Source of the DNA: an uncultured Gemmatimonadales bacterium
GTDB taxonomy: Bacteria > Gemmatimonadota > Gemmatimonadetes > Longimicrobiales > Gaopeijiaceae
Length of the DNA: 64,000 bases
Assembly (NCBI GenBank): GCA_963809895.1
Contig: CAWELD010000003.1
Location: 1,536,001 to 1,600,000 of the forward strand
Direction of reading: 5' to 3'
This document shows, in pieces, positions 39,001-45,000 of the stretch (its first letter is position 1; each line of letters opens with the position of its first letter). Position numbers: made by a program.

Positions 39001-42000
39001 CCTTCACCGCGCCCGTGAACGCGCCCTTCACGTGCCCGAAGAGCTCGGACTCCAGAAGGGTGTCGGTGAGCGCCGTGCAGTTCACGGCGATGAAGGGCTC
39101 CTCGGCGTGGGCCGAGTTGGCGTGGATGGCCCGGGCGACCATCTCCTTGCCGGTTCCGGTCTCGCCGCGCACCAGCACAGTGGCTCGGTTACGCGCCAGC
39201 ACGCCGATCATCTTGTAGATCTCGATCATGCGCGGATTGCGACCCACCACGTGCCCGCGATGCCCGGCCTCCGGCTCGTCGGTCTCCTCGACCTCGCCGT
39301 GCTCCTCCCGCACCTCGCGGTTGAGCTCCTGCTCCTCGAGGCATCGCTTCACGAGCTCGTCCAGCTCGCTGAGCTTCACCGGCTTGACCAGGTAGTCGAA
39401 GGCTCCGGCCTTCATGGCCGACACGGCGGTGTCCATGTCCTCGTGGGCCGTCATGACCATGACGTCGATGGTCGGACGGGTCTCCATGATCTTCTCCAGG
39501 AGCTCCAGTCCGCTGAGGCCGCCCATGCGGAGGTCGGTGACGATGACGGCGGGCTCGAAGCTCGCCACCTTGCCCAGCGCGGCCTCGGCCGACTCCACGG
39601 TCTGGACCTCGTGTCCGCTGTGGCGCAGCTTCTCGGCCAACGCCTCGCGGATGCCTTCCTCGTCGTCGACGATGAGAATACGAGCGCTCATGTGCTCCCT
39701 TGTCGGTCTTCGTTGTCTTGGTCGGATGCTTCGGTTCCGGTGCCCGGCCCGTCGGCCGACTCCCCCATCCAATAGGCCGGAGAATCGGGAGGCTCGTCGG
39801 CGCGCAGTCGGGCCAGGTGCTCCCGATCACGGCGGCGGCGGACCCGGAAGAGCAGGAGCGCCATGACGGCCAACCCGGCCCAGGCCAGCGCCGAGTGCGT
39901 GAACACGTACACCCAGCCGTAGCGGCGGCGCACGAACGCCCGCCAATCCTCTTCGAACTGCGCGGAGCTCACCCCGTACACGCGCCGCAGGGCGGTCTCG
40001 AAATTCCGCTCGTCACGCCAGACGTCCAGGAAGACGCGCAGCCCTCGCTCGCCGCTGGAGTCCACAAGATACTCGACTGCGGTCGCGCCGAGGAGGTAGG
40101 CCCCTTCCGCCGACGATCGATCCCCGGGCCAGCGGAGGTCCAGGGAATCCAGCGGTGGCGTGCGCCCCAACGCCATGAGCACCCGGAGACGCCAGGCCGA
40201 CAGCCGATCCCACCCGGCGGCCCATTGGGCGTAGCCCTCGTCGAACCACCGGGGCACGCGTAGTCCGGGCAGGGCCTGATGCAACCCCACGTGGGCCCAC
40301 TCGTGCCTCAGGATCCGCCACAGCGGCTGTCCACGCGCCCGCTTCGAGGCCACGGCGGGGATCACGATCCGGTTCAGCCCGGGCAGGGCCACGGCGGCGC
40401 TCCAATCGGGGGGATGTCCGCCCGCCGCCCGGCGGAAGGTCTCCTCGTCCGACGCCAGGATGACCGTCACCCCCCGCGGAAGGTCCGGCGACAGCGCGGG
40501 CAGGGGCGTCTGCCCCTCAAGCGCCGCCAGCACGGCCTCGGCCCGGAGGGAGTCGGTCGGGTTGAAGAAGACCTGAACGCCGTTTCCCTCCAACACCCTG
40601 GAAGGCATCCAGCGGCGCTGGGCCGCCGCCGGGTCCGGCCCCGGACCACACAGGAAGAGCAGGACGGCGATCAGCGCCGCGCCAGGCCACGACCTGGACA
40701 TCACCCCTGGGCGTCCAGCCCCGCGAGGAGTTGCCGTACCTCGGTGTTGCCCGGATTGAGCTCCAGGGCCCGCCGCCAGAGGAGCCGCGCCACGTCGTGG
40801 TCCGCGTCGGCGTGGGCGATGCTGCCCAGACGCAGGTAGACGTCGTCACCCAGCTTCGGATTGGCCTTGACCGCCTTCTCGTAGTGCACCCGTGCCCGCT
40901 CCGTCTCGCCGCGGTCGTAGGCCTGATCTCCCAGGGCTTTGTGGGCCTGGGCCGGGGCCGGATAGCGCCCGGCGGCCCGAGCGTAGAGCGCCGCCGCCGC
41001 CTTGTCCTCGCCTCGAAGCTCGAGCACGGCCCCCGTGTTCACCAGAATCGGTGCCGACTCCGGGTAGTGTCCCAACCCTTCCCTGCCCACCGCTACGGCG
41101 TACTCGTGCTGCCCGGCCATCCCGGCCGCGAGTACCGTGTATGCGTAGTAGAGCGGAGACGGCTTCCGGACCGACGGGGAGGTGCGGTGGAGCCGCAGGG
41201 CTTCCAGGGCCCGAACGACATCGCCCATGCGCAGCAGGATCACGCCACGGGCCAGCGCGACGTCGGGATCGCCGGGCCTGGACTCCAGGGCCCGATCCAG
41301 CACGGTCAGCGCCTCCTCGTAACGCCCGAGCATCTCCAACGCCAGGGCGCGGTTGCGGAGGACGCCGTGGAACGCCCCGCCGTCTTCCGGAATCGCCTCG
41401 AACCTGTCCAGCGCCTCCTGGTAGCGCCGCGACCTGAAGGCGATGAGCCCCAGCCGGTGGAGTGCCCTGGAATGCCGGGGCTCGCGTTCCAGTACCGCTT
41501 CGAACTCGCGGGCGGCGTCCTCCAGCATTCCGGACCGGTAGAACGCCGTGCCGAGCGCCAGATGCTGACCCAGATCGGCATCCTCGGGCGCGACGGTGGC
41601 GACTCCGCTGCCTGAGCGTTCGAGGAACCCCGCCTGGATGAGCCCGAAGAGCGCCTTGCCCACGTCGAACTCGACGAGCCCCGACTCGGCCACCAGTGCT
41701 TCCACCGTGCGCTCGCCGTCGATGAGCGGCAGCAGACGGTGCTGGGCGTCGGTGAGCTCCACATCGGGGTCCTCGGCCGGATCCTTCACGAGCGAGAACA
41801 CGAGGTCGAAGGAGGGGATCTTCTTCTCGATGAGGCTCCACTCGTCCACCCGGCGCGCACCCTCGAGCAGCAGGTTCTCCGCCGGGAGATTCACCAGGAA
41901 CAGGTCGCCTTCGTCGGGGGTCTGGTCGGCGTCGAAATGGAAGGAGCCCTGCGTCCAGGTGAAGAGGTGGTAGACGGCCTCCTCGATCTGGATGCGGATG

Positions 42001-45000
42001 AAGCGATTGAGGACGTCCTCTTCGAGCATCCCCGAGTGCACGAGGATCTCGCCGAGCCGGCGGCCCCGTTGCTGCGACTGCGCCTCCATGGCCTCTGCGA
42101 GCTGCTGGCGGTCGATGGCGCCGTTGCGCACCAGGAGCTCGCCGAGCCGGTCCGGTCGGTTCAGCACGGAGGCGAAGATCACACGGCCCTGGCGGAAGTA
42201 GACGTACCCGAAGTTCGAACGGTCGGTGACGGTGAGGCAGCCGGTCTTCCGCCCCATGGCCAGGAGCTGGAAGATGTCCGGCAGGCTCACGTCCTGGAGG
42301 GCGCCCTCGATGGCCATCAGTCGAGCTCCTCCACCAGGCGCTCCTCGAGCTGCGGCCAATCCCAGATGACCCGCTCACGAGACGGCCGCCACGCTTGCTC
42401 GCCCTGAGACGGGTCCGCCGGGGCAGCCGGAGGCGGCAGCGGTGCCGGGCTCTCCACCGCGGCCGGCGGCTGGGCCGCGACCGTCTCGTCAGGAAGGGTC
42501 TCCGACGCGGCCGTTTCGTCCCGCGCACCCTCCAGCGTGATGCCGTGCCACACGGTGCCCGCCTCACCCGCGCCCTGCGCGACGAACTCCACCTGATCGG
42601 CGCCCTCGGGCAGATCGCGAGCCGGCGCTTCCAGGACCAGCCCACCCTCGAAGCGTGAGCGCAGGCGGTCGTCGATGTGGGTGATGCGAGCCGGCGGGCG
42701 GTCGGCGACCAGCATCACCCGCGAGCCCCGACGCTTGAGCGCTTCGAAGAGGTGGAAGAACTCGTCCTGGGCCCGCTCGGTGTCGGCCAGGTCCTCCACG
42801 CCGTGAACCAGCAGCAGATCGAGTGTCCACCAGCGCTCGCGCCACGCCCCGGCCACACCCTCGGACAGCGCCCGGATGAAGTCCTGAGCGAAATCCGCCA
42901 CCGAGGTCACCGCCATGCGGGACTGGGCGTTCCGCTGACGGAAGACGCGCCCCGTCGCCGCCAGCACCGCCCGAGCGTTGCCCGGGGGGTTGCTCCACAG
43001 GAAGAGCGGATTGTACTTGGGCCGCTCGCCGGTGGCGAGCTGCTCCGCGGCGCGCGCGGGAAGCTGGGGAAAGTGGGGCGCCAACGCCTCCAGATCCGGG
43101 CCCTGGGCGAGCTCGGGAAAGGGCCGCACGCGCTCGCGCACGGACGCCAGCAGCGCCTCGGCCTCCTCCAGGCGATCCGGGTCGCGCACAAGCATGCTGG
43201 CCGCTTCGGGCCACGGGTTGCCGAGCCCCTCGAGCTCGGCGTCGATCTCCCGCAGCCGGTCCACGTCCTTCTGGAAGCGGGCGAGGCGCTCGTTCCACTC
43301 CCGGGGCGGATGGCGGTCCTCGAGGAGCGACCGCAGCCGGCTGGCGTCGAAGCCGTCGGCCTCGGCCGCCTCGGCCCCCTCGCGGAGCGCTTTCCGCCAG
43401 GTCTCTTCACCCGCACCGACGTTCATGACGCCGGAGATCTCGGAGAGGAGGTCCTTCAGGGGATCGGGAATCCCGTCACCGCGCTGGGCCGGCTCACCCA
43501 GCAGCTCGGCCAGATCGTCGACCTCCACCGGCCGCCCTTCGAGCTCCTGGACCGCCAGCACCCGGTTCAGCCCGCCGCCGAGCTCGCGCACGTTGCGGAA
43601 CGGACGGCGCGCCAGCGCTTCGGCCACCCCTCGCTGGAGACTCTGGCCACGCTCCTCGGCCTTGCGACGCACGATGGCCACGCGGGTCTCGAACTCGGGG
43701 GGAGCGATGTCGACGATGAGTCCGCCGGCGAAGCGTGACAGGAGGCGCTCGTCCAGGGCGTCGATCTCCGCCGGCGGACGGTCGCTGGCCAGTACGATCT
43801 GGCGGCTGGCGGTGGTCAGCCCGTCCAGCGTTCTCAGCACCATCTCCTGGGCTTCGGGCTGGCCCGCCAGGAACTGGACGTCGTCCAGCAGCAGCACGTC
43901 GAGCTCCAGGTAGCGTTCCCGCAGCGGGTCTCGCTCGCCTGCCGCCAGCGCCTCGGCCATCTCCTCCAGGAACTCCTCCATGGTGCGATAGAGCACCTGC
44001 GGCGCCTCGTCGCGCTTCCTGGCCTGGTGGGCCATGGCCATGAGGATGTGGGACTTGCCGAGCCCCGATGCCGCGTACAGGAAGAGCGGATTGTAACTGG
44101 CGCCCGGCGCTTCGGCGGCGCGACGGGCCGCAGCCGACGCCAGTCGGTTGGCCGGTCCCACGACGAAGTTCTCGAAGGTCAGCTTCGGATCCAGGTCCGT
44201 CATCAGCGCATCCCGCGGAGGCGCCGAAGCGCCGGAGAGGTCCCAGTACTTCGTAAGATCGGGCGCGCCCCAGGGGAAAAAAAGGGCCGAGTGGGGCGGA
44301 TCGGGCTCACGACGCTCCCCCGCCCCGTGACTCCCGCGCCCAGCGGGCCACATCGGCCAGGTCGTCGGGCAGCGCCGCCCGGAAGTGCATGCGCTCGCCA
44401 CTCACCGGGTGGTCGAACACCAGCTCCGCCGCGTGCAGGAACTGTCGGGGCGTGCGGCGCGCCAGCTCCCGCGCCCACCCCTGGGCGGGCCCGCTCATGC
44501 CCCGCTCCCATCCCGGCCCGTAGACCTCGTCGCCCACCACCGGGTGACCCCGATGCGCCAGGTGCACACGGATCTGGTGCGTGCGCCCGGTCTGGAGCGC
44601 CACGTCGAGCAGCTCGGCGGCGAGCCACCGCTCCCGCACGCGTACCCGCGTCAGCGCCCGGCGTCCGCCCTCTCGCACCACCGCCATGCGCTTGCGGTTC
44701 CCGGGATCGCGCCCGACAGGCGCGTCGATGGTCAGGGGGGACTCGTCCAGGTGTCCCCAGGACGCGGCCCGGTAGAGCCGCTTCACGTGCCGTTTCTTGA
44801 GCGCCGCTGCCAGTCCCTGATGGGCCTGGTCGGTCTTGGCCACCACCAGCAGCCCCGAGGTGTCCCGGTCCAGCCGGTGGACGATGCCGGGACGGAGCCG
44901 CCCTCCCACGCCCGAGAGGCCGTCCAGGTGATGCAGGAGCGCGTTCACCATGGTGCCGTCGCGGTGGCCGGGCGCCGGATGCACCACCATGCCCGCGGGC

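Follow-up and report, generated by a model that had tools for sequence, protein, structure and literature searches.

We lean towards the view that g01400, a tandem DnaA-like ATPase, and g01399, the TPR scaffold encoded directly after it, are two subunits of one signalling complex, the core that survives from a chemosensory/MglA polarity cluster of the Gemmatimonadota, and do not form a replication regulator. Judging from sequence comparison and structural modelling, the pair most likely forms a scaffold complex that is gated by ATP, senses c-di-GMP and acts on the polarity of the cell or on type IV pili, with an indirect link to the latter. The relevant features of the window, the whole 64,000-nucleotide stretch analysed here, are as follows; g01400, g01399 and g01398 lie at the coordinates given in a preliminary description of this DNA.

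38294..39772, minus strand: NtrC-type sigma-54 response regulator (REC, AAA+ and HTH_8 by Pfam), start codon uncertain
39688..40704, minus strand: g01398, membrane-anchored Peptidase_MA_2 protein with an HEWAH motif (338 aa; Pfam 5.1e-11)
40701..42317, minus strand: g01399 ("PMT"), PATAN/DUF4388 domain with an MshEN-type insert, winged-helix-like domain and TPR array (538 aa; Pfam)
40704..41570, minus strand: residues 250-538 of g01399, the TPR array into which the g01400 tail is predicted to dock (complex model)
41988..42149, minus strand: two MshEN-type 24-residue motifs of g01399 (residues 57-80 and 87-110; NF053729)
42317..44203, minus strand: g01400, tandem DnaA-domain-III AAA+ protein ("tDnaA"; 628 aa; open reading frame and translation)
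42320..42397, minus strand: C-terminal docking motif of g01400 (residues 603-628), W.PS.E.VIW.WP....RL.EELD (homologues, complex model)
42584..43117, minus strand: module 2 of g01400 (residues 363-540), pseudo-ATPase with box VII arginines (motif alignment)
43118..43417, minus strand: conserved helical domain (residues 263-362) that lies between modules 1 and 2 of g01400 (AlphaFold2 model and alignment)
43484..44203, minus strand: module 1 of g01400 (residues 1-240), intact AAA+ core and lid (motif alignment)
44307..45383, minus strand: pseudouridine synthase of the rluD type, bordering the locus on its upstream side (TIGR00005, 274.6 bits)

The anatomy proposed earlier, in which an active module precedes a pseudo-ATPase that keeps its arginine finger, a DNA-binding domain is lacking and the protein is coupled to a PATAN/MshEN/TPR partner, is borne out. 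From its ATG at 44203, g01400 matches Bac_DnaA twice (7.3e-80 for the whole protein, best stretch 4-165; 5.9e-52 and 7.0e-27 for the two stretches in the whole-genome Pfam scan) and has no Pfam match to DnaA_N or Bac_DnaA_C at E<=0.01; it consists of two domain-III modules and lacks domains I and IV. Its best solved structural matches are DnaA domain III (8bv3, TMt 0.91). The earlier count of 2181 homologues among 8000 candidates scored was reproduced, as were the AlphaFold figures (pLDDT 83.7 and pTM 0.50, against 81.6 and 0.49). With the genome's own DnaA (G000:C3, 466 aa) as reference, alignment of module 1, module 2 and DnaA gives identities at 100 of 243, 66 of 200 and 61 of 202 aligned positions, which places module 1 at 41% and module 2 at 33% identity to that DnaA. 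Module 1 retains Walker A (GLGKSH), Walker B (LLLDDV), box VII (RLLSRF) and sensor II (NVRELGG), and its ATP site is complete.

Module 2, as previously described, has lost its P-loop (now PPGNAR), Walker B (now LLLVHGV) and lid, and keeps box VII (RLRSRFEGG); G.GK[ST] occurs at this place in none of 40 close homologues. In a 40-homologue alignment G47, G49, K50, D107, D108, R142, R153, R157 and R206 of module 1 are invariant, together with R513, R517 and many further residues of module 2, and all ten residues previously named as invariant proved to be so. The helices between the modules, predicted with pLDDT above 90 and contiguous with module 2, carry the invariant residues W269, G284, R316, N329-P330-W331 and D341-P342. 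Mean pairwise identity amounts to 0.59 in this helical domain, 0.64 in module 2 and 0.56 in the C-terminal tail, against 0.21 in the unconstrained, disordered linker. Module 2 is a conserved pseudo-ATPase that retains only the arginine-finger segment; because the model, at this pTM, does not fix how the two modules sit relative to each other, it can be cast as an arginine donor only provisionally.

The scaffold g01399 is the sole DUF4388 protein of the genome (2.8e-41, 140.8 bits, two stretches, plus TPR families). The NF053729 match reported for it was recovered at 56.5 bits against a cut-off of 38, over residues 57-109; both copies fit the relaxed motif of PMC5013675 without mismatch, the region yields sequence matches to the N-domains of PilB, PilF and MshE, and the modelled unit superposes on MshE with bound c-di-GMP (5htl) at 0.8-1.3 Å over 54-58 residues, and on PilF at about 1 Å. 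The likeness to these MshEN (GSPII) domains does not extend to their setting, as the pair of motifs, separated by a 6-residue spacer, lies inside the PATAN domain of a TPR scaffold instead of heading a secretion ATPase, and its c-di-GMP binding is predicted. Sequence comparison shows g01399 to carry two MshEN-type c-di-GMP motifs within PATAN, followed by TPR repeats. Seven GGDEF matches are present in the genome.

The new element is the conserved tail motif of the g01400 family and its predicted docking to these TPR repeats. Its family-wide form, W.PS.E.VVW.WP....RL.EEL, is present in all but one of 120 listed homologues (the exception, P0098, is partial according to its source), persists in distant members of the family, and occurs once in the genome. 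Disordered in the monomer model, the tail is placed in the TPR groove of g01399 in complex models at ipSAE 0.86, 0.87 and 0.86, against 0.01 for the best control, values that express model confidence on alignments we built ourselves and may in part reflect memory of TPR–peptide complexes, of which the solved structures include many. Between runs at least 76% of contacts coincide, and the partner pLDDT is 70-75; among solved complexes 116 of 157 reach that mark, and among mismatched pairs 2 of 215. The interface spans residues 283-493 of g01399 and includes N322, D464 and G490, invariant among 21 homologues, as well as K460, present in 90% of them. Conservation is slightly higher at the interface than in the rest of the array (0.65 vs 0.58), a value that 1029 of 20,000 random residue sets reach. 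On the model, the C-terminal peptide and the long disordered linker before it are predicted to act as a tether between ATPase and scaffold.

The two genes are translationally coupled and co-inherited. Stop and start codons of g01400 and g01399 overlap by 1 nt in TGATG, as they do in most relatives, and g01399 and g01398 overlap in GTGATG. A g01399 homologue lies directly 3' of the g01400 homologue at 20 of 20 loci, and conversely, at all 77 named loci that extend 683 nt or more upstream, a tDnaA match directly precedes the g01399 homologue. Each gene is carried by 11 of the 47 genomes of the window's family, the same 11 in both cases, and the pair was not found in the other 36. The peptidase g01398, which reads as a signal-like N terminus, HEWAH, a C-terminal hydrophobic stretch and a charged tail, follows the pair at 37 of 37 loci of the reduced type seen in the window, where 103 nt separate rluD from g01400. 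It stays near rluD even at three loci of the family that lack the pair, abutting it in two and lying about 3 kb away in the third. The gene string ileS-rluD-g01400-g01399-g01398, earlier called strictly conserved, deserves that name within the sub-clade (36 of 37 named loci of the reduced type whose flanks are complete; 3 of 3 in the window's family) and not beyond it (0 of the 17 other loci fetched).

What the pair may have belonged to becomes apparent in relatives. Most genomes sampled from the window's class have it within a cluster of about 19 kb in the order CheY-CheA-CheC-TPR-PATAN-Roadblock-MglA-[tandem DnaA-like]-[PATAN/MshEN/TPR]-CheR-CheB-CheW-TPR-peptidase MA. The full cluster occupies the interval between rluD and the peptidase, where the window's lineage has the pair and the peptidase only; rluD borders it at three of six loci of a sister family (L043, L044 and L046). 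A Che-MglA-Roadblock-PATAN cluster accompanies the pair at 16 of 17 loci outside the window's family, and at che-type named loci with full flanks MglA lies upstream in 21 of 21 and CheR downstream in 20 of 21. In sister lineages the pair stands between the MglA GTPase gene and cheR, within the Che cluster at the same chromosomal site. One P-loop is found in tDnaA at 35 of 36 reduced-type loci and two at 23 of 25 che-type loci; module 2 has decayed in the window's lineage only, the loss of its P-loop going with that of the flanking che/mglA genes. Five exceptional genomes depart from the pattern, with the scaffold in the cluster without tDnaA in three and a one-module form in two, and tDnaA is dispensable in some lineages.

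If the pair is what we propose, ATP at module 1 would promote head-to-tail association, as in DnaA-clade AAA+ proteins, with module 2 serving as dedicated arginine-finger donor and structural partner, while c-di-GMP on the PATAN/MshEN insert would alter recruitment by the scaffold. The output would be polar or surface behaviour, most likely of type IV pili, with g01398, the membrane peptidase, acting downstream, perhaps along with the sigma-54 regulator next to it. As the Che inputs and the co-encoded MglA/Roadblock inputs are gone, c-di-GMP and ATP would be the inputs that remain. The polarity reading is transferred from relatives, since the window's genome has no CheW, no Roadblock match, and no tblastn match to CheA, CheC, CheR or CheB. 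PilT-family genes occur in 291 of 301 sampled genomes irrespective of the cluster. Published work describes PATAN-REC proteins of Che-like pathways binding the pilus motor ATPase PilB1 in Synechocystis, PATAN genes near mglA/mglB in other phyla, and co-occurrence of PATAN with GspE_N.

Among the alternatives, one with a small yet appreciable chance is that, after loss of Che, the pair was re-wired with the sigma-54 regulator and the peptidase into a c-di-GMP-responsive transcription or envelope module unconcerned with polarity. The regulator follows the peptidase in the window, at 3 of 3 loci of its family and at 27 of 34 reduced-type loci with at least 3 kb downstream, was not found at any of the three loci of that family from which the pair is missing, and has no kinase gene beside it in the window. 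Yet it is missing at the remaining 7 of the 34, no contact with it is predicted, and the tail-TPR link and MshEN motifs are equally conserved in che-type lineages without such a regulator nearby.

It is improbable that the pair is a functionless remnant of the Che/MglA loss, with the altered ATP site of module 2 as a first step of pseudogenisation. The P-loop counts above do track that loss, and other genera of the family have lost the pair wholly, but reading frames are intact at all 36 reduced-type loci with scorable frames, the stop/start overlaps are retained, both MshEN motifs are perfect in the window, and module 2 and the tail are held far above the linker in identity, with many module 2 residues invariant.

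Quite improbable, too, is the function favoured by the preliminary description, in which DnaA-ATP or some other AAA+ protein of replication is the target of the module 2 arginine finger, or of g01400 as a whole, and g01399 supplies the c-di-GMP input. Both modules are indeed nearest to DnaA domain III, the top structural matches are domain III of B. subtilis and T. maritima DnaA and Hda, box VII arginines are invariant in both modules, and module 2 retains a DnaA-like ERAQDEFFH segment. Hda, however, has an N-terminal clamp-binding motif, and g01400, with only about 8 residues ahead of its domain-III core, leaves no room for such a peptide. Unlike DnaA and Hda it has two tandem ATPase copies separated by a new helical domain, and ends its linker in a TPR-docking peptide whose predicted partner is the scaffold. 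The Hda model scores 111.5 bits, below its cut-off of 194.8; the tDnaA family was not found in 104 of the 301 sampled phylum genomes, all but two of which have matches of DnaA level or better; and the genes conserved around it encode MglA, Roadblock, PATAN and Che proteins, which belong to signalling and in no case to replication. On these grounds the Hda-like preference lacks support, whereas the broader suggestion of another AAA+ switch under second-messenger control fits.

Least probable of all is that g01400 still binds nucleic acid through surfaces of its DnaA-type domain III and connects the scaffold with the nucleoid or with single-stranded DNA: both modules align with domain III ungapped from Walker A to box VII and thus retain the initiator-specific helical insert, and the invariant R477 of module 2 (ERAQ) is what we take to be the counterpart of the DnaA "B-motif" arginine, but module 1 lacks that arginine (QPEAQ), domain IV is missing, and no conserved neighbour is DNA-related.

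The polarity-derived complex that we prefer can be set beside known systems. Like M. xanthus, in which the Frz chemosensory system acts on the polarity module MglA/MglB, the relatives encode CheY, CheA, CheC, CheR, CheB, CheW, an MglA orthologue (its GTPase matches the solved MglA of M. xanthus at 5.8e-73) and a Roadblock protein, and MglA is accompanied by TPR proteins, a role that SgmX is reported to have in M. xanthus. They differ in having a single gene array with two PATAN/MshEN proteins and a tandem DnaA-like ATPase, which go unmentioned in the M. xanthus literature examined (DnaA has 0 matches in PMC4316618), and the window's locus differs further in missing the Che, MglA and Roadblock genes. 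The tail recalls a second precedent in its predicted mode of binding. Hop TPR domains bind the C-terminal EEVD tail of Hsp70 and Hsp90; the g01400 peptide, also short, acidic, conserved and C-terminal, is predicted to enter a concave groove after a disordered linker and to contact conserved Asn, Lys and Asp residues. It is longer, however (about 25 residues), and tryptophan-rich, and it ends in a variable residue (D, E, R or G), hence it is not a strict carboxylate-clamp motif. Finally, g01399 shares its DUF4388/PATAN domain with PATAN regulators (PatA and PixG/PilG-type PATAN-REC proteins), and in place of their receiver domain it carries the winged-helix-like domain and some nine TPR repeats, the predicted receptor of the ATPase tail.

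The tandem DnaA-domain-III AAA+ protein encoded by g01400 (tDnaA) and the product of g01399, a PATAN/DUF4388 and TPR protein with an MshEN insert (the scaffold), are best understood as a two-protein complex, which is the best-supported reading of the pair; it descends from a polarity or pilus pathway and probably acts on such a pathway to this day. The two genes lie head to tail with that of a membrane-anchored Peptidase_MA_2 protein (the peptidase), as follows:

42317-44203, minus strand: g01400, tDnaA, 628 aa, ATG at 44203
40701-42317, minus strand: g01399, scaffold, 538 aa
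39688-40704, minus strand: g01398, peptidase, 338 aa

The stop of g01400 and the start of g01399 have one base in common (TGATG), g01399 overlaps g01398 in GTGATG, and a spacer of 103 nt separates g01400 from an rluD-type gene upstream. The minus-strand order is exbB-exbD-exbD-tonB-yggS-divIVA-ileS-rluD-g01400-g01399-g01398, after which comes an NtrC-type sigma-54 response regulator.

Pfam finds Bac_DnaA in two stretches of g01400 (7.3e-80) and, at E<=0.01, neither DnaA_N nor Bac_DnaA_C, so that domains I and IV of DnaA are not represented. Module 1 matches domain III of the genome's own DnaA at 100 of 243 positions (41%) and module 2 at 66 of 200, and the closest solved structures are DnaA domain III and Hda. 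Walker A, Walker B, the arginine finger and sensor II are all there in module 1 and invariant in 40 homologues, as expected by sequence of an active AAA+ ATPase. Module 2, which lacks both Walker motifs as well as the lid and its sensor II, does not qualify as such an enzyme. Every residue that the preliminary description had named as invariant proves to be so in the 40 homologues, which are 55-74% identical.

Motifs of the two ATPase modules of g01400
Walker A: module 1, GLGKSH; module 2, PPGNAR
Walker B: module 1, LLLDDV; module 2, LLLVHGV
Box VII: module 1, RLLSRF; module 2, RLRSRFEGG
Sensor II and lid: module 1, NVRELGG; module 2, no lid

In the AlphaFold2 model (pLDDT 83.7, pTM 0.50), module 1 occupies residues 1-240 and is followed by a flexible hinge, a conserved helical domain (263-362) packs with module 2 (363-540) at pLDDT above 90, and the chain is disordered from residue 545 to its end.

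The preliminary description had preferred to see in g01400 an Hda-like regulator of DnaA, a reading that fails on family tests, distribution and context alike, notwithstanding the presence of Hda among the closest structures. Hda is a single-module protein of about 230 aa with an N-terminal peptide that binds the beta clamp. The 628-aa, two-module g01400 scores 111.5 bits with the Hda model TIGR03420, below the cut-off of 194.8; just about eight residues (MTDLDPKL) precede its conserved TFENFV core, and none resembles the clamp-binding motif; and both the distribution of the family and its signalling setting, described below, speak against such a role. The notion that the pair is a decaying remnant was likewise rejected. 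Pairwise identity averages 0.64 in module 2 across the 40 homologues, versus 0.21 in the linker; by this measure of conservation module 2 is not drifting, and it is its former P-loop that varies freely, with G.GK[ST] there in 0 of the 40 close homologues. A DNA-binding role for g01400 was considered and rejected.

The DnaA equivalog model TIGR00362, of which only positions 102-337 of 437 are covered, gives g01400 360.4 bits against a cut-off of 343.9, a score that exceeds the cut-off only because the two modules add up. As source records also call the relatives 'chromosomal replication initiator' protein DnaA, genomes of the phylum can appear to have two dnaA genes; these labels are likely a systematic mis-annotation.

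The scaffold is the sole DUF4388/PATAN protein of the genome (PF14332, 140.8 bits; gathering threshold 25), the match being split in two by an insert that holds two tandem 24-residue MshEN-type motifs. NCBIfam NF053729 scores 56.5 bits on it (cut-off 38). Both motifs show zero mismatches to the relaxed MshEN pattern [RKPN]hGxxhhxx[GAS]hhxxxxhxxxhxx[QNKRYWST], as printed in PMC5013675. Counting mismatches, 17 of 21 homologues have at most one in each motif, the second motif being degenerate in loci L041, L043 and L046 and the first carrying two mismatches in L053; as a strict regular expression, the same pattern finds both copies perfect in just 5 of the 21. In a PDB profile search with residues 1-245, the insert resembles the c-di-GMP-binding N-domains of PilB, PilF and MshE (the whole protein retrieves TPR proteins only), and in the model of these residues (pLDDT 89.3) it superposes on c-di-GMP-bound MshE and PilF (5htl, 8pdk) at 0.8-1.3 A. 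On motif and modelled fold, g01399 thus belongs with the MshEN-type c-di-GMP receptors, binding being putative.

The remainder of the scaffold is less easily placed. Foldseek returned no match at E<=0.001 with the PATAN/MshEN model, and VIA-align with it matched only the MshEN unit and residues 162-238, leaving the fold of the PATAN beta-lobe unplaced. Residues 162-238 (window about 41604-41834, minus strand), between PATAN and TPR, look like a winged helix, with Z scores of 9.3 and 9.0 over 73-75 aligned residues to their best structural matches, subunits of SEA/GATOR1, complexes that regulate GTPases in eukaryotes; the likeness of the modelled part may be just that of a common fold. Pfam places TPR repeats at residues 250-538.

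These repeats are where g01400 is predicted to dock. After a variable proline- and alanine-rich linker, tDnaA ends in a motif that the preliminary description did not contain, W.PS.E.VVW.WP....RL.EEL(D/E), found in all but 1 of the 120 homologues listed (the exception, P0098, is partial according to its source) and retained by short one-module forms and by relatives as distant as 27-45% identity; it occurs once in the window's genome. Modelling of full-length g01399 together with the g01400 tail (residues 590-628), an alignment being supplied for each, gave ipSAE of 0.86, 0.87 and 0.86, the best control reaching 0.01, with at least 76% of contacts agreeing between runs and partner pLDDT of 70-75. 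Of solved complexes, 116 of 157 attain the mark set for ipSAE, as do 2 of 215 mismatched pairs, figures that apply only roughly because our own alignments were used, and memory of the class may add to the ipSAE values since TPR-peptide complexes are common among solved structures. In the model, tail residues 603-628 run along TPR residues 283-493, the interface containing the invariant N322, D464 and G490 together with K460 (90% of homologues). Conservation at the interface is weakly enriched, at 0.65 versus 0.58 for the rest of the array, a value that 1029 of 20000 random sets reach. It is through this modelled contact that g01400 and g01399 probably bind each other. Two giant relatives, P0172 (1990 aa) and P0180 (1876 aa), carry a first DnaA-type module close to the N terminus and a second some 1400-1500 residues on, and end in glutamate- and leucine-rich repeats in place of the tail motif.

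The pair was searched for in 301 genomes of the phylum, the window's included; four are unpublished (G057, G097, G157, G182), and no claim is made on them alone. By our reading, the best match to the tandem protein falls below an E of 1e-100 in 197 of the 301, DnaA alone giving 1e-75 to 1e-91, and the scaffold is present in 213 (E<=1e-60). Within the window's class, families f2-f6 and f8 often have both; neither was found in f7 (0/23), f9 (0/3) or other classes (0/19), and in the window's own family the same 11 of 47 genomes carry both genes. The scaffold gene directly follows the ATPase gene in 20 of 20 fetched loci, and a tDnaA match precedes it in all 77 named loci whose upstream sequence extends for 683 nt or more. 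These belong to the 80 top-ranking scaffold loci of named records, each from Gemmatimonadota by title, which overlap the fetched set (e.g., L074 and L037), so that the two sets are not independent. Even so, tDnaA is not indispensable to the cluster described below. Of five genomes examined that have the scaffold and a DnaA-level match only (loci L058-L062), two (G204, G283) bear a one-module form beside it, and three (G114, G072, G036) have no tDnaA, the scaffold there directly following MglA or CheC. In Longimicrobium records (L118, L120-L126), short tDnaA forms are separated from the scaffold by a 146-nt gap.

It is the setting of the pair in relatives that points to its origin. In 16 of 17 loci outside the window's family, it lies within one array, CheY-CheA-CheC-TPR(900 aa)-PATAN/TPR-TPR/Roadblock-GTPase-tDnaA-scaffold-CheR-CheB-CheW-TPR-Peptidase_MA-TPR, the seventeenth being a 5.3-kb contig with GTPase-tDnaA-scaffold only. 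The GTPase is an MglA orthologue (5.8e-73 to the solved M. xanthus MglA), whose reading frame in most loci ends 4 nt inside that of tDnaA, and the second PATAN protein of the cluster carries an MshEN-like insert scoring 36.4 bits, just below the cut-off of 38. The best 80 named loci divide into 33 of this che type, 44 of a reduced type, and 3 whose flanks are too short for assignment. Where flanks are full, the che-type loci have MglA upstream (21 of 21) and CheR downstream (20 of 21), and the reduced ones have rluD upstream (36 of 37) and the peptidase downstream (37 of 37).

The window's locus is a reduced derivative of this Che-MglA-tandem-DnaA cluster. In family f5, cheY comes directly after rluD, and the far end of the cluster is marked by the peptidase; in the window's lineage tDnaA, scaffold and peptidase alone remain between rluD and the regulator; and in three pair-less genomes of the window's family, rluD abuts the peptidase in two and lies about 3 kb from it in the third. 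This gene order shows a stepwise reduction at the same site. At the window's locus tDnaA is immediately followed, with a 1-nt overlap, by the PATAN/MshEN/TPR gene, and mglA is absent upstream, cheR, cheB and cheW downstream, and cheY, cheA and cheC further upstream. Module 2 decays in parallel with the reduction: che-type loci of f4, f5 and f8 keep both P-loops intact, the second Walker B acid is lost in 1 of 3 loci of f2, and the second P-loop is gone in 4 of 4 members of the window's family. Among 61 scorable named loci, a single P-loop is present in 35 of 36 reduced ones and two are present in 23 of 25 of the che type. As the lineages are related, a single event may lie behind these counts, which do not amount to a statistical test.

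In the window's genome as a whole, CheW gave 0 matches, Roadblock 0 at E<=0.001, and CheA, CheC, CheR and CheB none by tblastn; 7 GGDEF matches and 12 matches to the secretion/pilus-ATPase family were found. The genome's only close MglA-like GTPase (192 aa) shares 55% identity with the GTPase in the L049 cluster and is encoded away from the locus, between ybaB and pgsA (G000:C3:446415-447002; L057 7416-7994), among housekeeping genes in the order dnaX-ybaB-(ORF of 104 aa, no Pfam match)-GTPase-pgsA-cinA. Three adjacent genes at G000:C3:772568-775164, likewise away from the locus, encode a GGDEF protein, a PilB/GspE-type ATPase and a CheY-like receiver.

How might such a complex work? The DnaA-clade g01400 would act as an ATP switch, its dead module 2 still offering an arginine finger, and would be held by a flexible linker to the TPR scaffold, which would itself read c-di-GMP. 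More broadly, we tentatively propose, as a possibility that falls somewhat short of being probable, that this DnaA-derived, initiator-clade AAA+ ATPase has left replication altogether and become the ATP-dependent assembly subunit of a polarity/motility signalling hub, peptide-tethered to a c-di-GMP-sensing PATAN-TPR scaffold, the full system standing between the MglA GTPase and the chemosensory pathway and the window's live-plus-dead form being a built-in 'ATPase plus arginine-donor' pair independent of Che and MglA inputs. A link of the pair to type IV pili is indirect. It draws on MglA and PATAN biology in other phyla (a Synechocystis preprint, PMC4316618 and PMC11580455) and on one count within the window's family, where carriers have 2-4 PilT-family matches (12/12, the window's genome included) and non-carriers one or none (36/36), a difference that relatedness confounds. 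Across the phylum, whether a genome has a PilT-family gene says nothing on whether it is a carrier, since 291 of 301 have one.

The known roles of DnaA-type ATPase domains lie in initiating replication and controlling it. Two of them in a chemotaxis/MglA polarity cluster would widen the known uses of the fold, and the family would be a new kind of component in bacterial polarity systems. The predicted tail-TPR contact offers a concrete and cheap bench handle on an otherwise unstudied system of a phylum from which few members have been cultured. One homologue (P0043) is ascribed by its source to Gaopeijia maritima, a candidate cultivable carrier. Linkage of PATAN with MglA/MglB and co-occurrence of PATAN with GspE_N are already in print (the Synechocystis preprint, PMC4316618); in PMC4316618, 'DnaA' has 0 occurrences. 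Our literature search, judged partly by title and supplements aside, yielded no account of a DnaA-like ATPase in a Che/MglA/PATAN context, and none on DUF4388 with DnaA or on Gemmatimonadota with chemotaxis and MglA; among the papers listed for DnaA with MglA, or for DnaA-like, paralog or homolog with Gemmatimonad*, none was relevant by title. As far as searched, the Che-MglA-tandem-DnaA cluster of Gemmatimonadota is thus not found in print.

Upstream, ileS (45298-48760, minus strand) is split over two frames, an N-terminal part at 47507-48760 and a C-terminal part at 45298-47625, with an overlap zone of about 118 nt. The genome has no second ileS (the next best match is 27% identical), and in relatives both halves match in one frame, L038 having a single open frame of 1208 codons; the split reflects either a genuine break or a frameshift of the assembly. 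A long run of minus-strand genes spans window positions 38294-56325, and a conserved chromosomal region with high strand bias is described as common to Gemmatimonadota in the abstract of PMC11237797.
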